A DNA stretch of 64,000 nt from a virus. The DNA is taken from IMG/VR virus record IMGVR_UViG_3300047476_000704, positions 32,001 through 96,000 of that record, one strand, 5' to 3'. The notes beneath the pieces were generated by a model. It was not told the DNA's origin. It ran no database searches and saw only the letters and a list, made by a program, of their open reading frames with translations. Positions 9,635 through 32,609 of the stretch are shown in pieces. Position 1 is the first letter of the stretch, and the number at the start of each line of letters is the position of its first letter. The position numbers were made by a program, and so were the translations under genes.

Positions 9635-9651
9635 TAAAGTTATGATAATTG

Positions 9652-9741
9652 TAGAGAGTGAGGGGCTCGAACCCTCGCGCCGGTTTTACCCAACCTAACA
9701 GTTTAGCAAACTGCCCCCTTCACCAACTTGGGTAACTCTCT
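9652..9741 (-). tRNA. trnS: tRNA-Ser(GCT)
   Basis: Cloverleaf with long variable arm; loop TTGCTAA. Confidence 0.9.
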
Positions 9742-9742
9742 G

Positions 9743-9818
9743 TGGTGACTCCATCAGGACTCGAACCTGAAACCTACGCATTAGAAGTGCGTTGCTCTAT
9801 CCATTGAGCTATGGAGCC
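9743..9818 (-). tRNA. trnR: tRNA-Arg(TCT)
   Basis: Loop CTTCTAA; CCA encoded. Confidence 0.95.
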
Positions 9819-9823
9819 ATATG

Positions 9824-9909
9824 AGGAGGGTGTGAGATTCGAACTCACGGTCCTGTTACAGACTCCGGTTTTCAAGACCGGTGCAATAGACCAACTCTGC
9901 CAACCCTCC
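9824..9909 (-). tRNA. trnS: tRNA-Ser(TGA)
   Basis: Loop CTTGAAA; long variable arm. Confidence 0.93.
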
Positions 9910-9919
9910 TTTTATTATA

Positions 9920-10474
9920 TTACTCTTCGTTTAATTTCAAATCTTCAATAACTTCTTTATGGATTCGTCTTTCCTCTTCCATTAGTTCTTCTAACATTGC
10001 ATAAACTTCATCTCGATAATCATCATCTCCATAGAATTTATTTGCATCAATATCTTCATCTAAATATTCTTCCGAACCATATTCCGATGAATAATATGCT
10101 ATACCCATTGGGTCACAACTTTCGTCCTGAAATGTATTCTCAATTACAACATCCTCTTTGATACATATAAGTTTAGAACATAATTGTTTAAGTAATGGAT
10201 TTACTGCATCCCATGCTGATGTTAGATTGATTGAAATTTCAGTATCCCATTCTCCCTCAATTTGTCCATATACCCATTTAGCACCAACATTATCATTTAC
10301 CCAACCTCTATCATAATCCTCATCTGTCCAATTCATATCATATACACCATTAATTATATCAATTGTATGTGTATCTCCAATTTCATCCTGCACCGAAAAG
10401 ATTCTTTTCAACTCATCAATAACTGCTTGGTTACAATTTTTAACTCTAACCATATTATCTACGTGATTTGCCAT
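9920..10474 (-). CDS. Acidic hypothetical protein (possibly DUF1281/YubB-like)
   Basis: WVNDNVGAKW motif; inserted in the tRNA array. Confidence 0.6.
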   Translation of the reverse strand: MANHVDNMVRVKNCNQAVIDELKRIFSVQDEIGDTHTIDIINGVYDMNWTDEDYDRGWVNDNVGAKWVYGQIEGEWDTEISINLTSAWDAVNPLLKQLCSKLICIKEDVVIENTFQDESCDPMGIAYYSSEYGSEEYLDEDIDANKFYGDDDYRDEVYAMLEELMEEERRIHKEVIEDLKLNEE

Positions 10475-10827
10475 TAGATTTCTTCGGTTTTAGTTTGTGT
10501 TGAATCAGATTTTAATTTAATTTCGGGATATTTTTGGCGAATTTCAACCGAATCTTCAACTGCCCACTTTTGTTTAAGTTTAGCTCTTTTTTCAATATTC
10601 TTCAATTGTTCTTTCTTCTTTTGAATATCTTTTGTTAGTTTTTCAATACGAACATATTTACTTGCATAATCTTCATCGGTGGCATCAATCCACTCAATTT
10701 TTCTTTTAGATTCTTTGATTTCTGCTTTCAAACTTTCAACCAATGGTGCCTCATCACTAAACTTCGGGTCAATAGTTCCACCCAATGTGTTTAGTAAAAG
10801 CATGATAGACATTCCCAATTCTTTCAT
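10474..10827 (-). CDS. Hypothetical coiled-coil protein
   Basis: ORF downstream of a sigma-A promoter. Confidence 0.65.
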   Translation of the reverse strand: MKELGMSIMLLLNTLGGTIDPKFSDEAPLVESLKAEIKESKRKIEWIDATDEDYASKYVRIEKLTKDIQKKKEQLKNIEKRAKLKQKWAVEDSVEIRQKYPEIKLKSDSTQTKTEEI

Positions 10828-10842
10828 ATGAATTATTTTTTA

Positions 10843-10874
10843 CAAATATAAGATATTTTTTTATTATATCCTAA
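10843..10874 (-). promoter_or_regulatory. Bacteroidota sigma-A promoter
   Basis: TTAG-N20-TATATTTG. Confidence 0.7.
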
Positions 10875-10890
10875 TTTTATTTAACTTTTG

Positions 10891-10961
10891 TTACCCGAGC
10901 TGGATTCGAACCAACCCTAACTGCACCAAAAACAGTTGTGCTACCGCTACACCATCGAGCA
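10891..10961 (-). tRNA. trnQ: tRNA-Gln(TTG)
   Basis: Loop TTTTGGT; cloverleaf. Confidence 0.9.
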
Positions 10962-10966
10962 ATTCG

Positions 10967-11040
10967 CAGTTCGTACGGGATTCGAACCCGTGGTCTCCAC
11001 AGTGACAGTGTGGGATGTTGGGCCTCTACACCAACGAACT
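10967..11040 (-). tRNA. trnD: tRNA-Asp(GTC)
   Basis: Loop CTGTCAC; G73. Confidence 0.95.
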
Positions 11041-11112
11041 AAATGTGATTACTGATTTGACTCATTTCGAACTTTCGGGGCTCGTATCATTCAATTTCAG
11101 TAATCAATAATT

Positions 11113-11298
11113 AAAACAAACTTTTTGTACCCGATGTACATCATAACCAATTCGCATTGGTGGTTACATTTTCGCATTTGGGTTAATTACTCCCGACTTA
11201 TAGTAACTCTCTCCTGACCTGTATGACTATTCCGGCTTCAACAGTACCCTTTTGGATTTTATATACCGAGGGGTTACACCTCAGTCTTCGTTTGTTTT
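11113..11298 (-). ncRNA. Candidate structured ncRNA
   Basis: 9-bp closing stem, CCAAT-GCGA-ATTGG and TGTAC/GTACA hairpins; no ORF. Confidence 0.45.
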
Positions 11299-11299
11299 G

Positions 11300-11372
11300 A
11301 GCTTCCAGTCGGAATCGAACCAACAACCTCTCGATTACAAATCGAAGGCTCTACCAGTTGAGCTATGGAAGC
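11300..11372 (-). tRNA. trnT: tRNA-Thr(TGT)
   Basis: Loop TTTGTAA. Confidence 0.93.
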
Positions 11373-11782
11373 GTATTATTTCTTTTTTGCAAAGCTATTT
11401 TAGAACCTTTTATACCACCTTCTAACATTCTAGCATAACCTTCTTCTGATATATTTTTTAAACCAAAAGTTGGAGTTTGTGAATGACAATTAGGACACAT
11501 TATTTTTAGGTTTTCATGTCTATTATCTCTTCTATTTCCATTTATATGGTCAATCTGAAATGTTATTGGTTTTCCATTATATTCGGTAATACCACATTCT
11601 TCACATCTTTCACCTCTTATCTTTTTAAGATGAATACCCATACCTTTACTCCAATTAGTATCTAATTGAAACTTTGTTTTAATTCTATCGGCTGCTGAAC
11701 AATCCCACCCACAATACAATCCTTTTGATTGAGATGGCATATATGTTATTTCTTTTCCACAATTTTTACAATTTGATTTCAT
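11363..11782 (-). CDS. HNH homing endonuclease-like protein
   Basis: CEECG...IDHINGNRRDNRHENLKIMCPNCH; stop codon lies inside tRNA-Thr. Confidence 0.85.
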   Translation of the reverse strand: MKSNCKNCGKEITYMPSQSKGLYCGWDCSAADRIKTKFQLDTNWSKGMGIHLKKIRGERCEECGITEYNGKPITFQIDHINGNRRDNRHENLKIMCPNCHSQTPTFGLKNISEEGYARMLEGGIKGSKIALQKRNNTLP

Positions 11783-11796
11783 AGTATTTTCTTTAC

Positions 11797-11804
11797 TATA
11801 AATA
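11797..11804 (-). promoter_or_regulatory. Putative late-promoter motif TATTTATA
   Basis: 15 nt upstream of the HNH start. Confidence 0.55.
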
Positions 11805-11843
11805 TTAGGTTACTAAAAAAAAGTAAAGTAACCTAACCAAATG

Positions 11844-11917
11844 TACTCCGGACGGGACTCGAACCCGTAAGCTTCCACGTGAAAGGCGGATGTCCTAACC
11901 AATTAGACGACCGGAGC
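11844..11917 (-). tRNA. trnE: tRNA-Glu(TTC)
   Basis: Loop CTTTCAC. Confidence 0.94.
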
Positions 11918-11922
11918 ATTTA

Positions 11923-11954
11923 CAAATATAACTATTTTATTTTTTAATTCCAAA
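11923..11954 (-). promoter_or_regulatory. Bacteroidota sigma-A promoter
   Basis: TTTG-N20-TATATTTG directly upstream of tRNA-Glu. Confidence 0.8.
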
Positions 11955-11971
11955 CTTTTATGGAATTATTT

Positions 11972-12054
11972 TGGTGGGGGCAGAAAGACTCGAACTTCCG
12001 AACCCGAAGGAGAGCATTTACAGTGCCCCGCAATTGCCGCTATGCGATACCCCC
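11972..12054 (-). tRNA. trnY: tRNA-Tyr(GTA)
   Basis: Loop CTGTAAA; variable arm; CCA encoded. Confidence 0.95.
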
Positions 12055-12152
12055 AATTTAGTCTTTTCCTTACCTCTTAATAACCACATTGCCAGTCCGA
12101 TGTTACTATCGGATGCTTACCAAAATCATACTTTGGAGCGATTACTACATTG

Positions 12153-12224
12153 AGCAGGTAGTCAGATTCGAACTGACGTCTCCGGTTTGGAAGACCAGAG
12201 CACTAACCACTGTGCTATACCTGC
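12153..12224 (-). tRNA. trnG: tRNA-Gly(TCC), canonical
   Basis: Loop CTTCCAA; U73. Confidence 0.93.
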
Positions 12225-12229
12225 AAATT

Positions 12230-12450
12230 TCCCCACTTGAGATTCCAGATGAGTAGATATTTATAGTTTTTCCTTTCAAAAACCCAATGCATCTTACTGC
12301 TTAAAAAGTCAACACTACGGGGAGGAGCCGTGTCCCCACTCCTTTATTCCCACGAGAACGGCGTTTTATTAGTTAGGATGTCCGCTCCATTACCCTATCC
12401 ATTGTTAAATGAGTCTTGGATTAAAGACTACCGAGTATCTCTTACTCGTT
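12230..12450 (-). ncRNA. Candidate structured ncRNA with possible pseudoknot
   Basis: CGAGTA/TACTCG, AGTCTT/AAGACT and GTTTTT/AAAAAC hairpins; crossed GGAG/CTCC and GGGGA/TCCCC stems. Confidence 0.45.
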
Positions 12451-12451
12451 G

Positions 12452-12525
12452 TGGACCAGGTAGGAATCGAACCTACTACCTTCACATTATGAGTGTGCCG
12501 CTCTAACCGAGTGAGCTACAAGTCC
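12452..12525 (-). tRNA. tRNA with CAT anticodon (Ile2 or elongator Met)
   Basis: Loop CTCATAA; G1:C72; identity not resolvable by eye. Confidence 0.85.
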
Positions 12526-12579
12526 ATATCGTTTAATCTAACGATAAAATCTAATATCGTTTCTTTCAACGATAAATAA

Positions 12580-12689
12580 GGTGCCGGAGGAGAGATTGGT
12601 TACTCTCACGATGCCCTTCTCGGTTACACCACCACTCTAGAATAGGTACGTCTAATGGTTGTACTTCCCATTTGTTCCGCCACTCCGGC
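12580..12689 (-). ncRNA. Remodelled tRNA-Leu-like RNA (110 nt)
   Basis: Acceptor GCCGGAG/CTCCGGC + ACC; Leu-type D-arm with hairpin insert; disrupted anticodon stem; T-loop TAACCAAT. Confidence 0.6.
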
Positions 12690-12699
12690 ATATTTCTTT

Positions 12700-12776
12700 T
12701 GGTGGAGAAAGTGGGATTCGAACCCACGACCTCTTGAATGCAAATCAAGCGTTCTAGCCAACTGAACTAAATCCCC
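12700..12776 (-). tRNA. trnA: tRNA-Ala(TGC)
   Basis: G3:U70; loop TTTGCAT; CCA encoded. Confidence 0.93.
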
Positions 12777-12780
12777 ATTA

Positions 12781-12884
12781 TGTAACGGCTGTGCGGTTTG
12801 TGTCTCATTCACTCCTTTATACGAGCTTCAAAAGTTTCCATTTCATACCTAGCGTCTGTTCCGCCATTCTTTCGAATCGTTACA
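12781..12884 (-). ncRNA. tRNA-derived RNA (104 nt)
   Basis: 7-bp closing stem TGTAACG/CGTTACA; ATTC-GAAA-GAAT hairpin; Leu-type TGGCGGAACAGACGC; no TTC loop. Confidence 0.45.
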
Positions 12885-12887
12885 TTG

Positions 12888-12971
12888 TACTTCGGACTGG
12901 AATCGAACCAGCACTCTCTTACGAAAACAAGATTTTAAGTCTTGCGGGTCTACCTATTCCCCCACCGAAGC
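12888..12971 (-). tRNA. trnL: tRNA-Leu(TAA)
   Basis: Loop CTTAAAA; variable arm. Confidence 0.94.
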
Positions 12972-12978
12972 AACTTTA

Positions 12979-13010
12979 CAAATATACGAAACTTTTTTCA
13001 TATATCCAAA
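12979..13010 (-). promoter_or_regulatory. Bacteroidota sigma-A promoter
   Basis: TTTG-N20-TATATTTG upstream of tRNA-Leu(TAA). Confidence 0.85.
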
Positions 13011-13033
13011 TGATTTCAACAAAAAGTTTAATG

Positions 13034-13103
13034 TTGCGTGTGTGGGGTTCGAACCCACTTGACTTTCCTTATGAGAGATAGCTCTTTTCCACCAAGCCAC
13101 GCA
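13034..13103 (-). tRNA. Degenerate tRNA-Met(CAT)
   Basis: Good T-arm and loop CTCATAA; weak D-arm; mismatched anticodon stem. Confidence 0.6.
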
Positions 13104-13106
13104 ATA

Positions 13107-13183
13107 TGGGGTGTTTAATGGGATTCGAACCCATACTATCAGTACCACAAACTGATGTGCTAACCATTAACACCATAAACAAC
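13107..13183 (-). tRNA. trnH: tRNA-His(GTG)
   Basis: G-1:C73; loop TTGTGGT; CCA encoded. Confidence 0.94.
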
Positions 13184-13184
13184 G

Positions 13185-13256
13185 AGGTGAATATTGGATT
13201 CGAACCAATGTAAAAGGTTTTGCAGACCTCCACCTTACCAACTCGGTCAATTCACC
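13185..13256 (-). tRNA. trnC: tRNA-Cys(GCA)
   Basis: Loop CTGCAAA; U73. Confidence 0.94.
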
Positions 13257-13262
13257 ATTATG

Positions 13263-13334
13263 TAGTTCCATAGAGACTCGAACTCCAACTTTGACATCCG
13301 TAGTGTCAGGTGCTATCCATTACACCATAGAACC
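13263..13334 (-). tRNA. trnR: tRNA-Arg(ACG)
   Basis: Loop CTACGGA. Confidence 0.94.
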
Positions 13335-13338
13335 ATTG

Positions 13339-13409
13339 CACGTCCTGAAAGATTCGAACTTTCATCTGCGGTTTTGGAGACCGATATGCTACCATTGCAC
13401 CAAAGACAT
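13339..13409 (-). tRNA. trnW: tRNA-Trp(CCA)
   Basis: Loop CTCCAAA; G73. Confidence 0.92.
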
Positions 13410-13441
13410 GTATTTTATTTCCAAAGTAAAAAATTACCTTC

Positions 13442-13477
13442 AAAAAATTTTTCCAACTTCACCCAAAAGTTGAAAAA
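13442..13477 (-). terminator. Terminator-like hairpin inside the tRNA array
   Basis: TCAACTT/AAGTTGG stem with flanking T/A pairs followed by T6. Confidence 0.45.
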
Positions 13478-13480
13478 GTG

Positions 13481-13554
13481 TAGAGAAAATAGGACTCGAA
13501 CCTATAACCTTCTGCGTATCAGGCAAATGCTCTAACCAATTGAGCTATATCTCT
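13481..13554 (-). tRNA. trnI: tRNA-Ile(GAT)
   Basis: Loop CTGATAC. Confidence 0.93.
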
Positions 13555-13560
13555 ATTCGG

Positions 13561-13633
13561 TAGGGTAAGCAGGACTCGAACCTACAACCTCACGCACCCA
13601 AAACGTGTAATCTAGCCATTGATATACTACCCT
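13561..13633 (-). tRNA. trnP: tRNA-Pro(TGG)
   Basis: Loop TTTGGGT. Confidence 0.92.
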
Positions 13634-13639
13634 ATATTG

Positions 13640-13712
13640 TGAACCCGTTGGGAATCGAACCCAAAACCCCTACATTAAAAGTGTAGTGCTCTACCAATTG
13701 AGCTACGAGTTC
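13640..13712 (-). tRNA. trnK: tRNA-Lys(TTT)
   Basis: Loop CTTTTAA. Confidence 0.95.
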
Positions 13713-13714
13713 GT

Positions 13715-13791
13715 TGGTGGAGCAGACAGGTATCGAACCTGTTCCTCTGGATTTTCAGTCCAGCGCAATGCACCTCATCTGCCACTACTCC
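13715..13791 (-). tRNA. trnF: tRNA-Phe(GAA)
   Basis: Loop CTGAAAA; CCA encoded. Confidence 0.93.
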
Positions 13792-13831
13792 TTCTAATCC
13801 GATTTTGATTTGTAGCATCGGGAACTACCTG

Positions 13832-13905
13832 TGTCCATAGTAGGATTCGAACCTACACAATCTGGTTTCTAAAACCAACACGGTTGCCAATTACGTCATA
13901 CGGAC
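13832..13905 (-). tRNA. trnL: tRNA-Leu(TAG) with short variable loop
   Basis: Loop TTTAGAA; only 5 nt variable region. Confidence 0.85.
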
Positions 13906-13913
13906 ATTTATTG

Positions 13914-13986
13914 TAGTGAGTGAGGGACTCGAACCCCCAACATCCGCCATGTAAAGACGGCGCTCTACCAATTGAGCTAACCCACT
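13914..13986 (-). tRNA. trnV: tRNA-Val(TAC)
   Basis: Loop TTTACAT. Confidence 0.94.
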
Positions 13987-13997
13987 GTTTCACCATT

Positions 13998-14010
13998 ATG
14001 TCAAAGAACT
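13998..14010 (-). promoter_or_regulatory. rrn-type boxA antitermination element
   Basis: AGTTCTTTGACAT between tRNA-Asn and tRNA-Val. Confidence 0.65.
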
Positions 14011-14018
14011 TATTCTTG

Positions 14019-14090
14019 CGTTGATGGTAGGATTCGAACCTACGACCAATAGATTAACAGTCTACTGCGCTACCACTGCGCCACATCAAC
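14019..14090 (-). tRNA. trnN: tRNA-Asn(GTT)
   Basis: Loop CTGTTAA; G73. Confidence 0.95.
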
Positions 14091-14104: not shown

Positions 14105-14136
14105 AAAAAAACCCCTAACTTTTTGAGTCAGGGGTT
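14105..14136 (-). terminator. Intrinsic terminator (attenuator) in front of the tRNA array
   Basis: AACCCCTGACT-CAAAA-AGTTAGGGGTT followed by TTTTT; ends 15 nt before tRNA-Asn. Confidence 0.85.
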
Positions 14137-14350: not shown

Positions 14351-14911
14351 TTAAAAATCGTAATATCCTTTTACTTTTGTTATATTACAATCGCTATTCC
14401 AAGATATAATTGTTTTTACTACATCACTATCAACTCTAGGTGCTCTATGTAGAATAAAACTTGGGAATGTTAGAACATCTCCTTCTTTCACATCCATCTC
14501 AATTATTTCATCCTGATTTATTGGATTTAATAATTGTGTTTTTGGAGAACCTTCTGGTAAATCTAAATAATAAACATTAGTCCATTGGCATCCTAAATGA
14601 ACATGCCAACCATGTTCCGAACCTTTGTTGTATTGTTGAAACCAAATATTTCTTATTTTAATTTCATCATACCCAAGCTCATCAAATCTATGTTGTAATA
14701 GATTAGTTATTGGTTGCATTACTGGCTTCAAATAAAGCCGTTCAACTTCCCTACTTACATCCCAATCTGTTCTACTTATATCAGTATAATCATTTGGAAA
14801 TGTATATCTTGTAGATTCACATTCATTTATTAATTTCAATACCTCATCCTTTATTATTTCATGCTCTGGTAATTTGGAGATGATATATGGACATTGTATT
14901 GATTTAATCAT
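14351..14911 (-). CDS. 2OG-Fe(II) oxygenase-like protein
   Basis: WFQQY...HGWHVH...VYYL...FPSFILHR double-stranded beta-helix motifs. Confidence 0.75.
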   Translation of the reverse strand: MIKSIQCPYIISKLPEHEIIKDEVLKLINECESTRYTFPNDYTDISRTDWDVSREVERLYLKPVMQPITNLLQHRFDELGYDEIKIRNIWFQQYNKGSEHGWHVHLGCQWTNVYYLDLPEGSPKTQLLNPINQDEIIEMDVKEGDVLTFPSFILHRAPRVDSDVVKTIISWNSDCNITKVKGYYDF

Positions 14912-14922
14912 AATCTAATTTT

Positions 14923-14995
14923 TGGAGCGGAGGGATGGAATCGAACCACCTCATTGTACTGGAATGTACACATGCTACCGGAACACTTCCTCCGC
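14923..14995 (-). tRNA. Atypical tRNA-Gly(TCC) with 6-nt anticodon loop
   Basis: TGTAC-ATTCCA-GTACA; G1:C72, C2:G71, U73, CCA encoded. Confidence 0.8.
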
Positions 14996-15204
14996 TTATA
15001 ATTTAGAAAGATTTGTGGGGTGGCTCTTTCTAGTGGAACTAGCTACATTCCGTTTTTACCATTCAACTTTTATTCGTATCGTTGAAGTTATTTTATAGGT
15101 TAAACTCCCCACCTAAAAACTTGGTATTACTTTTTAATCTGATTTGTGGTTAAAGTGTAAAATCAATCTCGTTACCTTCACGCCTATTGAAAACCACTAC
15201 GAAG

Positions 15205-15275
15205 AGCGAAACAAAGGAATTGAACCCCCTCCTTCGACCTGGACGGCCGATGTGCTACCATTACACCAATCTCGC
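15205..15275 (-). tRNA. Atypical tRNA-Gly(TCC) with G33 and three G:U pairs in the T-stem
   Basis: Loop CGTCCAG; T-stem GGGGG/CCTTT; G1:C72, C2:G71, U73. Confidence 0.75.
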
Positions 15276-15282
15276 TTATATT

Positions 15283-16200
15283 ATTACGGATGAGAATACT
15301 CACGTAAACGAACCAGCTTTTGTTGGATTATTGTTTCCCAACTTTTCCACTATCTTTTGGATAGTACCGATTCAATGCGGGTTAGTTAAGCCAACCACTC
15401 ATAAAGTTACAAACTACTCTCTCTTTACTCCGCTTCTTCTACTCTGCCGAACAGATTCACACTTGCGGTGTTAGAAGTTTTTCGAAAGAATCACAGACCT
15501 CTTGCGGAGGTATCGTGGCAGGGAACATCTCCCTACTATGTACGCACCTTTCGTTTGCAACTGGCGAACACTTTTGCTCTTTTTGTTTAAGATTTGCGTC
15601 AAATGCAAAATGAGTTTGGTTTGTAGATGGTTTCAAGTAGTGGTTCACCAACCTGCTCCGTTATCTTTTGAACAACAGAATACTGAACTACTCGATGTGT
15701 TATCCCTAACACCATACTTTAAGTCTGCTTCATAACTCCTACCTTGGTAGGTGAAGAGTAAGGATAATAACGACACCACTCGTACTTTATCTTACCTTTC
15801 GGTTTTAAGCAAACTCTAATATTGAATCACGCAATTGTTGAAAGGGATTAAGTTTCAGTTTCTCGCAATAACTCTATGGATTATTCTTATTGGTGTTCCC
15901 ACCTCAACTGAACTATCTACTTTAGCCCAGTCATTTCACCACCCTCTTTACAGTGTTACCCTCAATACTAAAGGTGAAATGATATTCCACTTGCCTACTC
16001 AAGCTCCTTTCGAAGCCGCAAATCACTTAAACCAAATGATTCACTTTATCCTACTTTCGTAGTTTATTTCACGACCATAGGCGGCCGATGTACACTATGT
16101 AGAACTAGTCTACTATGTGCTAATGCTTTTAATAATAATTGAAATGTTGTACATTTTACGGGCGTCTTATTTACAATTAGTCTACTATCCCACAATTATT
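15283..16200 (-). ncRNA. Giant structured ncRNA, GOLLD-like (about 900 nt)
   Basis: No credible ORF; many GNRA-capped hairpins on the minus strand; 10-bp TCATTTCACC/GGTGAAATGA helix; own promoter and boxA; among tRNAs; ends approximate. Confidence 0.65.
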
Positions 16201-16204
16201 ATAT

Positions 16205-16217
16205 TTCTCAAAGAACT
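16205..16217 (-). promoter_or_regulatory. boxA-like element
   Basis: AGTTCTTTGAGAA between the promoter and the giant RNA. Confidence 0.55.
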
Positions 16218-16272
16218 TTTTATTTGAGTTACCGAGTATCTTTCATCACCTATTGGTCTCAAATCTATAATA

Positions 16273-16303
16273 CAAATATACGAAACTTTTTCCATATATC
16301 AAA
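16273..16303 (-). promoter_or_regulatory. Bacteroidota sigma-A promoter
   Basis: TTTG-N19-TATATTTG. Confidence 0.85.
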
Positions 16304-16320
16304 ATTATTTTTACTTTTTT

Positions 16321-16500
16321 TTAAGATTGGTTGTCTCCGGCTTTTTAACCCCCCGCGTTTGGAAAGATATTCACACATTCGGTTTTATTAGATGTTGGCT
16401 TCAACAACCATTCTTAAATATTGGATGAGTAGTGGGATGGTATTTCTACCTCTCGGGTCCTCTTAACACCGGACTTCTCCACACCGGCATACTAACCTCA
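16321..16500 (-). ncRNA. One or two small structured RNAs with their own promoter
   Basis: TTAAGA..TGGTTGT / ACAACCA..TCTTAA closing stem (16321-16417); second imperfect stem 16426-16500. Confidence 0.4.
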
Positions 16501-16512
16501 TTTTCAACATTA

Positions 16513-16543
16513 CAAATATACGAAACTTTTTTCATATATCAAA
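16513..16543 (-). promoter_or_regulatory. Bacteroidota sigma-A promoter
   Basis: TTTG-N19-TATATTTG. Confidence 0.85.
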
Positions 16544-16562
16544 GTCTTTTTAACTTTTTTTT

Positions 16563-16637
16563 TGGTTGCGGGAGACAGAATCGAACTATCGTAGACCTGG
16601 CTTATGAGACCGGTGGGAAACCAACATCCTCCCCGCG
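16563..16637 (-). tRNA. Initiator-type tRNA-fMet(CAT) with reduced D-arm
   Basis: C1.A72 mismatch; loop CTCATAA; ACCA end. Confidence 0.8.
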
Positions 16638-16650
16638 ATTTATTATGATA

Positions 16651-16682
16651 CAAATATACGAAACTTTTTTCATATATCCAAA
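16651..16682 (-). promoter_or_regulatory. Bacteroidota sigma-A promoter
   Basis: TTTG-N20-TATATTTG. Confidence 0.85.
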
Positions 16683-16689
16683 TGATTTC

Positions 16690-17258: not shown

Positions 17259-17283
17259 TAGTGGAGATGAAGAAAACGAATAG

Positions 17284-17670
17284 TGGAGATGGTGGTATTC
17301 GAAACCACGTCCAGATAAGTTTCTAATGTAAATCGTTCACAAGTTTATTCAATTTTTCTAAACTGAAAAAATATAGAGTTTCTATTTTGCCATTGCCACT
17401 CTCAAATGTGGAAGATTCACTTTAATAGGTAGAACCTCAAACGAGACCTCACTTCCGTTCACTTCTTTTTAAGTCCCACGAGTGATGCGGGATTGATTAG
17501 GCAGCTACTGCGTAATCGAATGAGTTCATCCATGCCATAGCATCTTCGAACGTCATTGTAGATAATTCTACGTCTGCACTTATTGTTTGATAGGTATTCA
17601 AAGGTTTCCATCTAACCTTACTTGCATCAATACAACCAGTCTTCATACCTGTCAAAAGCCGGTCATCCCC
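17284..17670 (-). ncRNA. ssrA: tmRNA
   Basis: 5' GGGGATGACCGGCTTTTGACAG; G3:U70; T-arm; 3' CATCTCCA; tag ADVELSTMTFEDAMAWMNSFDYAVAA* (17577-17497). Confidence 0.95.
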
Positions 17671-22168: not shown

Positions 22169-23299
22169 TTACCTACCAAATCCAATTTTAGGTTTTACTT
22201 CTTCTGTTTTATATTGTTCTGTATTAATATTATAAATATCTGCCAATACCATTTCTTCTTTCACCTCATTATCCATTCCCAAATGTTTTATTAGGATATT
22301 AGTATCTTCTACATTTAGTTTACCAAACTTATGTTCGGCAATCAATCTACCTTTTCGCAATAGAGCAGAATCAATCTTTTCTTTATCCATATTAAATGTA
22401 GCAATAATACTAATGTTTAGAATATCACCCAATATACCATCTGTTAAATTTAGAATGTTAGATACACCCGTAGATGCATAGGAATTATTTCTATCACCAA
22501 TAATCTTCTCCGCATCCTCAATCACCAAAATACAATCTTTGTTGTCCATTAGGAATGGAACAAAATCAGGATTAACAATACTCTCTGCTAAAATTGGTGG
22601 TAAAAACAAAACCTTTCTCTTCATATGATTTGCTAACCATTTGATGTATGTGGTTTTACCTGTACCCGGCAGTCCATGCAACAACACCAATCTACCTCTT
22701 TGTTCCTTTTTAGATGTCAATGCAGTTACAATTGAATCGTTTATTTTAACAAAATCCTTACCATAATTTAATTCTAAATCAATCTTTGGCTTTGGTAATT
22801 TAAACTCCTCCGTTTCGAATCCATACGATGTTGCTTTTAATAAATGTATCTTACCCTCTTTACTTTGTTTAGATAACTTCGTAACATCATCCAATATAGT
22901 ATGTTTTAATATATCTTTTGTACAAGTATATGCAAATGATAATCTATATTGATTCTTCTTTATTGATTTTGAATCTTGTTCTACATAATCTGGCTCATCA
23001 AAGTAATCACCATCAATCTCCGATACATTTATTAAAATCAAATCCATACCATCTACCCGTCTTTCATAAGTAGAATTACATTTTGATTCCTTTGGTGATA
23101 GAAAATACTCCGATTGTTGGATTTTATTAAATCCAGCATTTTCTATTAAGGATAAAACCTTTTTATCAAACTTTATATCGCTTGAAAACTTTGTAGTGTT
23201 ATATAATTTACCAGTCTTTAAGGCAATATATTTGCCCATAGAAAAGTCATCACCATGTCCTGCTGTATATAATTTCTCTAATTCTGTATTCATTACCAA
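22169..23299 (-). CDS. AAA+ ATPase
   Basis: LLHGLPGTGKT, VIEDAE, LNLTDG, ATFN, LRKGRL. Confidence 0.9.
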   Translation of the reverse strand: MVMNTELEKLYTAGHGDDFSMGKYIALKTGKLYNTTKFSSDIKFDKKVLSLIENAGFNKIQQSEYFLSPKESKCNSTYERRVDGMDLILINVSEIDGDYFDEPDYVEQDSKSIKKNQYRLSFAYTCTKDILKHTILDDVTKLSKQSKEGKIHLLKATSYGFETEEFKLPKPKIDLELNYGKDFVKINDSIVTALTSKKEQRGRLVLLHGLPGTGKTTYIKWLANHMKRKVLFLPPILAESIVNPDFVPFLMDNKDCILVIEDAEKIIGDRNNSYASTGVSNILNLTDGILGDILNISIIATFNMDKEKIDSALLRKGRLIAEHKFGKLNVEDTNILIKHLGMDNEVKEEMVLADIYNINTEQYKTEEVKPKIGFGR

Positions 23300-24096
23300 A
23301 AGTTTTTAGCTATTTCCGTACTTGGTTCTATTGTAGTATGGTGTTCAATTCCTTTATTATATTCTCTTGCATTTTTTGGATACTCTCTGATTGGATGTTT
23401 TAATCGTTTCATCAAATCTTTCTTCTCCCGTTTGTCCTGTGGTATTAACTGAATGTATCTATGTTTTGGTGGTTCTTCTCTTCTCCAAAATTCAGTATAT
23501 CCATCTTTACCAATTTCTCTACGAAGATGTTCTAAATTACCACTACCCCATTTTGTAAATACACTCCTACTATGTATCCATTTATATGGGTCTTTTTGTA
23601 CCGATATACCATAATTTGGCATCAGTGCAATATCGGTATTTAATCCTTGATAAATCCAATTGGTTGCTTGGTATATTCCACCCAAATGTTCTTGTCCATT
23701 ATCAGCGTATGAGAGCAAAACTTTGATTGCCTTATCATTTTCTTTCAACCACTTAAACGATTGCCCCAGAGCAAAACTTTCAATGTTAGAACCATACCCA
23801 TCATCGCAATATAAACGAGTTAATTCCAAAATGTTATCTTTGGTTAAACCCTCACATACAGATGTAGGTGCCTTTGCTCCAACCGGAAAACCATAGATTA
23901 AACAACCTATAAGTTTTTCAGTATCACCCAAAGCATTTTCGGTATCCGTTTTATAGAATATACCCAACGAATATCTACAAGCAGTCCAAGCGTGAGTATA
24001 GTGTTTCTTTACAATGATTTCTTTTGCAATGGATGTACTAATCTCCCTAACGGATACTCTACTCGTATCACAATAATTTTTATTAGCTTCTTTCAA
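23293..24096 (-). CDS. Mom-family (GNAT-fold) adenine modification enzyme, copy 2
   Basis: KHY, LELTRL, NIES, LSYAD..QEHLGGIYQATNWIYQG. Confidence 0.8.
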   Translation of the reverse strand: MKEANKNYCDTSRVSVREISTSIAKEIIVKKHYTHAWTACRYSLGIFYKTDTENALGDTEKLIGCLIYGFPVGAKAPTSVCEGLTKDNILELTRLYCDDGYGSNIESFALGQSFKWLKENDKAIKVLLSYADNGQEHLGGIYQATNWIYQGLNTDIALMPNYGISVQKDPYKWIHSRSVFTKWGSGNLEHLRREIGKDGYTEFWRREEPPKHRYIQLIPQDKREKKDLMKRLKHPIREYPKNAREYNKGIEHHTTIEPSTEIAKNFW

Positions 24097-24847
24097 TTGG
24101 TTCTAATTTGAATATTTCTTCATCATGCTCTTCACTTTCTTTTGGATATGGGAAAGTTTCATGCTTTAATGATTTAATTAACTGCTTTCTAACTTTTTTA
24201 TCTTTGGTTAAGATATAAACATAACGATGTTTGCGTGGTTCTCTTTTAATCCAAAATGGAGATGTTACCATTGTCTGAATTATCTTTGGGTCATTCGTTC
24301 CGTATTTCACATAAGATGTTCTACTATGATGCCATTCATCTTCCTCACTCCACTTAAAACTCCAACTATCACTCCATCTGATTTTGTTACCCTGATATAT
24401 CCAATTGGTAGCTTGATAGATAGTCCCTTTATGTCCAACCTTTGGGTCTGAATATGAAATTAGTGCTTTAATCTTTGGTGTATTATCTCGCAACCATTGA
24501 AATGTTTGTCCAACAAACCAACTCTCAATATTAGAACCATACCCATCAAATACAAATAGGCGAGTTAATTCCAATACAGTATCCCTTTCCAACATATCAG
24601 AAATTGATGCTCCTGCGTTTCTACCAATAGGGTCTCCATAACAAGCTATACCTATTAGCTTTTCATTTACTCCACTAAAAAATTGATGCTCATCTGCCGA
24701 TTGATAAAACAAACCCAATGCATAGGATACTTTTGTCCATATACCACTATAATGGTTATTTACAATAATATCCTTTGCAACGGACTTGTTTACAGGTCTA
24801 ACTATGAGTTTGGATGTATCGCAATACTCTTTACCTTCTACTTTCAT
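24083..24847 (-). CDS. Mom-family (GNAT-fold) adenine modification enzyme, copy 1
   Basis: NHYSG, LELTRL, NIES, ISYSDPKVGHKGTIYQATNWIYQG. Confidence 0.8.
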   Translation of the reverse strand: MKVEGKEYCDTSKLIVRPVNKSVAKDIIVNNHYSGIWTKVSYALGLFYQSADEHQFFSGVNEKLIGIACYGDPIGRNAGASISDMLERDTVLELTRLFVFDGYGSNIESWFVGQTFQWLRDNTPKIKALISYSDPKVGHKGTIYQATNWIYQGNKIRWSDSWSFKWSEEDEWHHSRTSYVKYGTNDPKIIQTMVTSPFWIKREPRKHRYVYILTKDKKVRKQLIKSLKHETFPYPKESEEHDEEIFKLEPIERS

Positions 24848-31481: not shown

Positions 31482-32609
31482 TTATTCATCACCTAATACA
31501 CTTGTATCTACTAATAGATTATCTGTATCCAATGAATCTTTTTTGTATTGTAGAATAGTGTATTCACAAATTCGTTTATAGATTTGTTCTTTTACCGATG
31601 GATTTGCTTCCAATATTTCCTGCAACTCTTTGGCTTGGAACTTAAATTCTTCACCAGTTTCAGTATCAACATATGTGTACCACGCTCCACCTTGTTTAAC
31701 AAAGTTATAATCCTTCATTGCTCCCAACCATGCGCCATAGTTATCAATACCCCTATCAAAGAAAATATCAAAATCTGCGGAACGCAATGGTGGTCCTAAT
31801 CTATTCTTAATTACATTGGCTCTTACTTTGATACCAACGATTCTCTCATTCCCCTTGTCATCCTTTGCTTTGATTTTACCAGTTGATGCTAATCTTAACC
31901 GAACCGAAGCATGGAAAGCAATTGCTTTACCACCCGATGTTGTCCAAGGGTCTGAAAATGCCATTGCGTTCATCTTTTGGCGTAATTGGTTTGTGAATAC
32001 TAATGTAATCTTTTGTCTACCAATCACATTTGTGATTTTACGCATTGCCTTTGAAATGATGATTGCTTTATCAGTTGCGTAACCATCTTTATCGTAATCA
32101 GCTTCTAGCTCTCTTTTTGTAGATGCTGCTGCAACTGAATCCACTACGATAGTTACTAACTTATCCTTATCACCTTTTCGTACTTGCTCAATGATTGTAT
32201 CAATTGTTTCAAATATATCCTCAACGGTATCAGCCGTAATATATAATAGTTTGGATACATCTACACCAATTGCATCAAAGAACTCTCTACTTACAGCAGT
32301 TTCAGTATCAATCAATACTGCAACACCACCTTGCTTTTGCGTTTCTGCTAGCACGTGTGCTGATAATAATGATTTACCACTCTGCTCTAAACCAGTGATT
32401 TCCGTAATTCTACCAACCGGAAAACCTCCGAATGGTCTATTGGAAACCGCCACATCCAACATTGTTGCCCCAGAAGAGACCCACCCACTTATATTAGTGG
32501 GTGCGTCCTCCGAGTCATCATCTAAAAAGAACGCAACCTTTTGGTCTTTGTATTTCTTGTTTAGATTATCGGCAATTTGTTGTGCTAAATCCGCTTGAAC
32601 TTTTGCCAT
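31482..32609 (-). CDS. recA: RecA/UvsX recombinase
   Basis: GLEQSGKS, IDTE, DSVAA, TNQLR, GGKAIAFHAS. Confidence 0.95.
   Translation of the reverse strand: MAKVQADLAQQIADNLNKKYKDQKVAFFLDDDSEDAPTNISGWVSSGATMLDVAVSNRPFGGFPVGRITEITGLEQSGKSLLSAHVLAETQKQGGVAVLIDTETAVSREFFDAIGVDVSKLLYITADTVEDIFETIDTIIEQVRKGDKDKLVTIVVDSVAAASTKRELEADYDKDGYATDKAIIISKAMRKITNVIGRQKITLVFTNQLRQKMNAMAFSDPWTTSGGKAIAFHASVRLRLASTGKIKAKDDKGNERIVGIKVRANVIKNRLGPPLRSADFDIFFDRGIDNYGAWLGAMKDYNFVKQGGAWYTYVDTETGEEFKFQAKELQEILEANPSVKEQIYKRICEYTILQYKKDSLDTDNLLVDTSVLGDE

Follow-up and report, generated by a model that had tools for sequence, protein, structure and literature searches.

Why should a phage that already has an ordinary tRNA-Gly gene keep two further tRNA-Gly genes whose decoding parts look broken? 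The question is raised by a 64,000-nt stretch of DNA (positions 32,001 to 96,000 of the IMG/VR virus record IMGVR_UViG_3300047476_000704; hereafter the window, to which coordinates without a prefix refer), part of the complete 194,856-bp record of a lake phage. An initial annotation had proposed that these two genes produce RNAs that are charged with glycine but kept out of translation, and that supply the Mom-like enzymes encoded in the same window. Judging from their homologues in related phages, the two RNAs, here called tB and tA, form a conserved family of non-decoding tRNA-Gly-like RNAs (hereafter Gly-like RNAs), and we lean towards the view that they are private, non-decoding glycyl donors for Mom. 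The features on which this answer rests are the following:

15204-15275, minus strand: tB, tRNA-Gly-like RNA (ARAGORN; Rfam tRNA, 40.7 bits; model R1, 88.3 bits; homologues and covariation)
14923-14995, minus strand: tA, tRNA-Gly-like RNA (ARAGORN "tRNA-???"; Rfam tRNA, 36.6 bits; model R1, 74.1 bits)
14996-15203, minus strand: S element, structured RNA of 208 nt between tB and tA (homologues, alifold consensus)
15287-15695, minus strand: conserved 3' domain of the GOLLD RNA (Rfam RF02032, 293.6 bits, E 9e-84, model positions 1-416)
12152-12224, minus strand: canonical decoding tRNA-Gly(UCC) of the tRNA array, our comparator (ARAGORN; Rfam, 70.8 bits)
24083-24847, minus strand: Mom1, Mom-family GNAT protein of 254 aa (Pfam PF25680, E 1.1e-43)
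23293-24096, minus strand: Mom2, paralogue of Mom1, 267 aa (Pfam PF25680, E 2e-43)

Both tB and tA score above the 29-bit cut-off of the Rfam tRNA family (RF00005) and are thereby recognized as cloverleaves, with the two lowest tRNA scores in the window, the 23 tRNAs of the array ranging from 47 to 77 bits. ARAGORN and Rfam thus bear out the presence of two extra tRNA-Gly genes beside the normal tRNA-Gly(UCC), a gene that model R1 does not match at E ≤1. ARAGORN reads tB as tRNA-Gly(tcc) and leaves tA unassigned ("tc") on account of an undersized anticodon loop: the stem of 5 bp (TGTAC/GTACA) closes six nucleotides, AUUCCA, a loop length that the initial annotation had noticed. Its description of the other copy is equally accurate, since the anticodon loop of tB, CGUCCAG, places a G at position 33, with G:U in the T-stem at each of 49:65, 50:64, and 51:63. 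Since C32 and G38 can pair, the tB arm may alternatively be viewed as a 6-bp stem closing the 5-nt loop GUCCA, and this form is found outright in relatives. Decoding competence calls for a 7-nt loop, U33, and no Watson–Crick 32:38 pair; tA departs from it by its 6-nt loop and tB by G33 and C32:G38. The CCA end is encoded in tA (14923-14925) and not in tB. Both RNAs have G1:C72, C2:G71, U73, C35, and C36, which the initial annotation had listed, and G3:C70 as well; the listed elements are indeed those of the identity set of bacterial glycyl-tRNA synthetase (GlyRS; PMC7826273).

We gathered related loci via the Mom protein, two GOLLD sequence patterns, and the AAA ATPase adjoining Mom, and aligned 22 homologues of tB and tA from related phages, the control being the same alignment with slid pairing partners. 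The cloverleaf positions are paired in 97.1% of the cells, as against 40–57% in this control, both partners have changed in 11 of the 21 pairs, and none of 500 shuffles reached the observed covariation score. The elements read by GlyRS are constant throughout: the pairs 1:72, 2:71, and 3:70 and U73 are invariant (22/22), so that the acceptor part of the identity set (G1:C72, C2:G71, G3:C70, U73) is complete in all copies, and C35 and C36 are retained in every loop, whatever its length (4–7 nt). Acceptor pairs 4–7 covary freely. All copies but one, which has ACC, show the UCC triplet. The anticodon arm exists in at least five versions (a 5-bp stem closing CGUCCAG; 5–6 bp closing AUUCCA; 6 bp closing GUCCA, AUCCA, or UUCCA; 6 bp closing AUCC; and one 7-bp stem), each of them recurring on different, compensated stems; for instance, the AUUCCA hexaloop of tA sits on such stems in L152, L182, L313, and G061. 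In the T-stem, 50:64 is G:U in 20 of the 22 homologues and 51:63 is G:C in a single one. The D-loop GG and the T-loop TTC are both gone in L182, L313, L320, L325, L335, and both copies of G010, and ARAGORN overlooks several of the homologues. The family has been kept across phages whose proteins are 65–90% identical.

As far as the alignment can tell, selection acts on exactly the GlyRS identity set. An RNA that may be charged and does not decode fits the retention of pairs 1:72 to 3:70, U73, and C35C36 within loops of 4–7 nt, and the whole pattern is the one expected if charging by GlyRS was kept and decoding discarded, unlike what decay or a bare cutting signal would leave. The weakness of the T-stem pairs that contact EF-Tu is no more than suggestive of weak EF-Tu-GTP binding. 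Gly-like RNAs without GOLLD also occur in other settings (L396:3540-3612, plus strand; L399:1320-1395, minus strand), where one of them overlaps the last codons of an unidentified open reading frame on a 4.8-kb fragment and another adjoins a small lipoprotein-like open reading frame upstream and a terminator downstream. A scan with a loose D-arm/T-loop pattern returned, among the matches listed, mostly tRNA-Trp and ordinary tRNAs.

The two open reading frames at 23293-24847, called Mom-like in the initial annotation, are by all sequence criteria true Mom-family proteins. They score 148.9 and 149.8 bits against a PF25680 cut-off of 27.1 bits (E ~1e-43) and, aligned to the Mom protein of phage Mu (PDB 8bv8, with a chain numbering offset of 9 derived from the position of S124A), both keep the positions of the catalytic residues R111 and S124, within ELTR and NIES. 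In Mu, Mom moves glycine from Gly-tRNA-Gly to the N6 of adenine in double-stranded DNA (Silva et al. 2026, PMC13219725), in agreement with the initial annotation. The Mu enzyme works with each of the three Escherichia coli tRNA-Gly isoacceptors but not with Gly-tRNA-Ala, which means that it recognizes features of tRNA-Gly, probably at the acceptor end; phage-encoded donors are not mentioned in that paper (PMC13219725). Unlike Mu, which has one mom gene and uses host tRNA, the phage family studied here possesses a tandem, diverged Mom pair (Mom1 and Mom2 are 43% identical) and Gly-like RNAs of its own, 8–70 kb away. The tandem pair is present in all 80 related Mom loci, and a protein search with Mom1 retrieved only close relatives among the matches listed.

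The Mom pair occupies a site between the AAA ATPase and PhoH genes where DNA-modification genes are swapped. At this site, G001 (L160:692-2702) has an N6/N4-methylase-like gene and one for a pyridoxal-phosphate-dependent enzyme, and G002 (L159:10787-15098) has both of these plus an asparagine-synthase-like amidotransferase and a thymidylate-synthase-like gene, a collection that resembles a pyrimidine hypermodification set.

The test of co-occurrence between aberrant tRNA-Gly and Mom genes called for by the initial annotation turned out in favour of its idea. Tandem Mom genes are found in all 14 records that carry a Gly-like RNA and whose Mom status can be decided (the window, L088, G025, G003, G006-G010, G061, G069, G082, G084, and G092). 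No Gly-like RNA was detected in the Mom-free relatives, among them the complete G086 and G089 as well as G015, G023, G033, G087, and G102, where the only tRNA-Gly are canonical ones with a CUUCCAA loop. Physical linkage does not explain the association, because Mom and GOLLD lie 60–70 kb apart in G006-G009. Two phages with Mom and no GOLLD, G010 and G061, still have Gly-like RNAs at least 66 kb from Mom; both copies in G010 are invisible to ARAGORN and adjoin a canonical tRNA-Gly(GCC). Conversely, G001 and G002 have a GOLLD 96–97% identical to that of the window, but in them a different DNA-modification cassette takes the place of the Mom pair and exactly tB and tA are missing, through a clean indel of ~215 nt relative to L002. 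Mapped on the GOLLD tree, the presence of Gly-like RNAs requires no fewer than 7 changes and that of Mom no fewer than 5; when only strict Mom negatives are counted, each trait changes 5 times, the changes falling together. Supported branches yield 4 independent pairs, and the use of all branches 5, every one of them concordant.

Two elements of this comparison had to be discarded. PhoH and the AAA ATPase are valid anchors of the Mom site only in the subclade of the window, Mom having other neighbours elsewhere; the contrasts were therefore recomputed with the strict Mom-negative set, with unchanged outcome. What first seemed to be a counter-example, G107 (262 kb, 97% complete, no Mom), proved to be a chance match of the anticodon-arm pattern inside a coding sequence, without a tRNA fold. 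The 385-kb Mom-free phage G015 (L354, L367) carries, next to each other, two genes of the tRNA-Gly(UCC) type whose CUUCCAA loops are normal (G015:256930-257133), one of them with A73 and the other with a hairpin of ~12 nt inserted in the D-loop.

If tB and tA are glycyl donors, they would be transcribed as the tail of the GOLLD RNA, in the order GOLLD, tB, S, and tA, and excised by RNase P and RNase Z like any tRNA, which would also trim the 3' end of GOLLD. The host CCA-adding enzyme would complete them and the host GlyRS would charge them with glycine via G1:C72, C2:G71, G3:C70, U73, C35, and C36. The loaded RNAs would be kept from EF-Tu and the ribosome because their loops are shortened or closed (4–7 nt, G33 or C32:G38) and the 50:64 and 51:63 pairs are weak, and would thus constitute a private pool of Gly-tRNA from which Mom1 and Mom2 could transfer glycine to the adenine N6 of phage DNA. 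In this way the DNA might be hypermodified without draining the Gly-tRNA required for late protein synthesis. The inferred steps of this scheme are the maturation of the RNAs, their charging, their escape from EF-Tu, and their use by Mom. Our literature search found no paper linking GOLLD to Mom, and what is new here is the attachment of Gly-like RNAs to GOLLD together with their linkage to Mom at a distance. Were the scheme correct, these phages would bring their own translation-proof glycine carrier for Mom-type hypermodification, going beyond the borrowing of host Gly-tRNA. The cell-wall tRNA-Gly of staphylococci would thereby have an equivalent in viruses, and odd tRNA genes, which annotation pipelines pass over or label as pseudogenes, would acquire a new function. 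The recently solved mechanism of Mom would gain a natural, testable pair of partner RNAs, Mom-type modification might become predictable from RNA genes alone, and this would be the first case of a GOLLD-attached RNA tied to a defined enzyme system.

Several observations weigh against a donor role. GlyRS would have to read C35 and C36 inside a loop of 4–6 nt, and the tB and tA of the window retain the D-loop GG and a TTCRA T-loop (TTCAATT and TTCGATT). A sign test on the 4–5 contrasts gives p = 0.125, and fewer than six pairs cannot reach 0.05. Most of the metagenomic records are fragments, and several of the Mom-minus calls come from records that are 65–74% complete. No Mom was seen in eight fragments bearing a Gly-like RNA, of which four could be located on their contigs and the other four are short (3–15% complete). 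Among these Mom-less fragments, the RNA lies at the very contig end in G004 and G108 and mid-contig in G088 (51% complete) and G109 (32%), and G004 and G088 also lack PhoH. In six cultured Mom phages of other families (Polaribacter P12002L, Aeromonas AsFcp_2 and AS-sw, Methylophilales Melnitz-3, Vibrio F100, and Listeria LP-125), model R1 found only canonical tRNA-Gly, tRNA-Trp, or nothing; Mu also lacks such RNAs. Mom in general does not need them, and the RNA family is thus a lineage-specific addition rather than a requirement of Mom. Finally, in other phages the place just after GOLLD is taken by a tRNA-Met (8 loci), a tRNA-Thr (one), an odd tRNA (one), or, in many cases, a 44-nt minihelix, so that part of the placement of tB and tA is unrelated to Mom.

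These alternative occupants, located at the same offset, are an argument for regarding tB and tA as nothing else than punctuation or cargo of GOLLD, either an RNase P/Z cutting site or tethered partners of the cage, with the Mom link being an accident of shared ancestry. The 11 nt that separate tB from the last hairpin of GOLLD, the S element lying between tRNA-like RNAs in L322 and L333, and the tRNAs noted in the literature beside and inside GOLLD all agree with such an explanation. However, GOLLD does not need a tRNA-like RNA, since G001 and G002 maintain theirs, almost unchanged, without any; Gly-like RNAs exist without GOLLD in G010, G061, and G109; and a mere cutting signal would preserve neither C35 and C36 nor the first three acceptor pairs, neither of which the minihelices preserve. 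All the concordant Mom contrasts would, moreover, be coincidence. We consider this explanation unlikely, and punctuation of GOLLD is probably a further role of the RNAs, compatible with that of donors.

The co-occurrence data apply equally if tB and tA are coupled to Mom without being donors, acting instead as regulators, decoys, an antidote to Mom toxicity, or a shield of the host Gly-tRNA. Mom appears to recognize the acceptor end of tRNA-Gly, and the title of Kahmann et al. 1985, as cited in PMC13219725, presents mom as a lethal function with a unique regulatory scheme. Nonetheless, the retention of C35 and C36 is most simply explained by recognition by GlyRS, that is, by charging, and a donor role takes fewer assumptions because the known co-substrate of Mom is Gly-tRNA-Gly; coupling of this other kind seems to us rather improbable. 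Least credible of all is that tB and tA are decoders, ordinary or special (frameshift-prone, G33-tolerant tRNA-Gly), or decaying pseudogenes. The UCC-type triplet present in all copies, the nominal 7-nt loop of tB, and its identification as tRNA-Gly by ARAGORN speak for decoding, but shortened loops (4, 5, or 6 nt), G33, and a Watson–Crick 32:38 pair do not fit decoding in the A site, and the array already contains a canonical tRNA-Gly(UCC). Decay is excluded by the strong covariation and the conservation across phages, and pseudogenes would not track Mom. We have accordingly rejected both the pseudogene and the special-decoder readings on the grounds of covariation and loop geometry.

The glycyl-donor role that we favour has a precedent in bacteria. 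Staphylococcus aureus and S. epidermidis possess non-proteogenic tRNA-Gly (NP1-NP3) that are the glycine donors of FmhB, FemA, and FemB (PMC7826273), and by analogy these are the closest working counterpart of tB and tA. In both cases there are extra tRNA-Gly(UCC) genes with G1:C72, C2:G71, U73, C35, and C36 beside a normal decoder. The staphylococcal RNAs have T-stem and T-loop features of weak EF-Tu binding, in S. aureus a TGC or TGT replacing the TTC of the T-loop (PMC7826273), and some relatives of tB and tA have likewise lost this TTC. They feed a GNAT-fold transferase off the ribosome, the same job that we propose for tB and tA. Unlike them, however, tB and tA are encoded by a phage and fused to the 3' end of GOLLD, their proposed acceptor is a DNA adenine and not peptidoglycan, and their anticodon loop is shortened or closed, so that decoding seems to be abolished rather than disfavoured. 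A second parallel is found in the ssrA islands of Dehalococcoides, in which a conserved tRNA-Gly-like "pseudo-tRNA", with no function assigned, lies inside a mom homologue (McMurdie et al. 2011, PMC3146451). By that description, a tRNA-Gly-like locus travels there too with a Mom homologue on a mobile element, but within the mom open reading frame, whereas tB and tA are unlinked to mom and fused to GOLLD, which is why their association with Mom is visible by co-occurrence only.

The membership of the upstream RNA, absent from the initial annotation, in the GOLLD family is clear: it matches the Rfam model over its full length (positions 1-416) with 293.6 bits, the gathering score being 150 bits. 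tB begins 11 nt past the 3' domain delimited by Rfam, a position that fits a tRNA-like 3'-end processing element, other tRNAs and minihelices recurring at this same offset. Cutting of the precursor by RNase P/Z at the 3' end of GOLLD, which we infer from the tRNA-like fold, would be the generic part of the story.

Such processing is known from MALAT1, where mascRNA is a tRNA-like 3'-end processing module placed after a long non-coding RNA whose 3' end is defined by RNase P. To our knowledge, mascRNA has no aminoacylation identity. tB shares with it the position right after a long RNA, but in the tB/tA family the Gly identity set appears to be under selection.

Ordinary tRNAs adjacent to or embedded in GOLLD, such as a tRNA-Met upstream and a tRNA-Phe in the linker, have been described (Kretsch et al., bioRxiv 10.1101/2024.12.08.627333; PMC12990946). 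As in these published cases, GOLLD here heads a phage tRNA array and a tRNA-like RNA is covalently attached to it in the primary transcript; unlike in them, the attached RNAs are predicted to be non-decoding, Gly-like, and at the 3' end, and they track Mom rather than GOLLD. On the available sequences, the Gly identity of the RNA in this slot follows Mom and not GOLLD. Elsewhere the slot can also hold a tRNA-like RNA with a non-Gly acceptor stem, or nothing. A bolder idea, for which we would not claim more than a slim chance, is that GOLLD offers a general slot at its 3' end and that the cage stores, presents, or times the release of whichever tRNA-shaped RNA is attached to it, in Mom phages delivering the private glycyl donor at a late stage of infection. 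It would tie the GOLLD nanocage, so far functionless, to DNA hypermodification and the management of tRNA supply.

In Mom-free relatives, the minihelix immediately follows the 3' end of GOLLD (L167:12860-12910; L312, L315-L318, L321, L323, L329-L332, L337-L346). It is built from an A/U-rich acceptor stem of 7 bp, the vestigial stretch AATGGTT, and a canonical T arm, with neither anticodon arm nor Gly identity, and has the appearance of a signal for RNase P/Z or CCA addition and nothing else. The tRNA-Met(CAT) genes lie ~48–55 nt after the ATAATCC motif of GOLLD in L093, L094, L095, L103, L109, L113, L123, and L143, and ~1.1 kb before this motif in L083, L092, L112, L131, L136, and L148. The one in L095 has a seemingly mismatched 1:72 pair and would be initiator-like.

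The S element, which starts with UUCGUAGUGG, measures ~205 nt in general and 208 nt in the window, and has homologues in L091, L312, L320-L323, L326, L330, and L333. Its alifold consensus contains 23 pairs, with both partners altered in 7, and leaves 5 of 230 cells unpaired. S occurs in Mom-plus and Mom-minus relatives alike, after the tRNA-like RNA that follows GOLLD, and is absent from the closest relative, L002, in which tB and tA are 5 nt apart. In L322 and L333 it is flanked on both sides by tRNA-like RNAs and, because the one that follows it is another minihelix, S is probably a discrete, released RNA. We considered that S could be a T-box or another known RNA, but found no Rfam match below E = 1.

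The remaining features of the locus are:

9651-14090, minus strand: tRNA array of 23 genes
14110-14136, minus strand: intrinsic-terminator-like hairpin, the first one downstream of GOLLD-tB-S-tA
14351-14911, minus strand: 2OG-Fe(II) oxygenase gene (PF13759)
15696-16270, minus strand: probable variable 5' domain of GOLLD, with approximate borders (no open reading frame; identity to G001 and G002)
16302-16275 and 16542-16515, minus strand: promoter-like sites
17283-17670, minus strand: tmRNA

tB and tA therefore sit between the tRNA array and the tmRNA, all on the same strand. No minus-strand open reading frame of at least 50 aa exists within 15696-16689, and the segment 15696-16270 is 92–97% identical to G001 and G002. 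Co-transcription of GOLLD, tB, S, and tA can be deduced from the lack of any terminator-like hairpin between GOLLD and 14136, the first one being that at 14136-14110, and the primary transcript of this phage likely comprises, in order, GOLLD, tB, the 208-nt spacer, tA, and the oxygenase gene. A blastn search of the locus against isolated phages detected only similarity to GOLLD in two huge uncultured phages and to the oxygenase gene. The latter is inserted here between tA and the leader of the tRNA array, and its homologue in L002 and G001 lies ~3 kb upstream of GOLLD. The two promoter-like sites are identical (TTGATA, 16 nt, TATATT) and located inside repeat units of ~240 nt upstream of GOLLD, which are also present in L002 and L004. 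The tmRNA encodes a tag of 26 residues ending in YAVAA, and these tags diverge widely among close relatives (L004, L117, L091).

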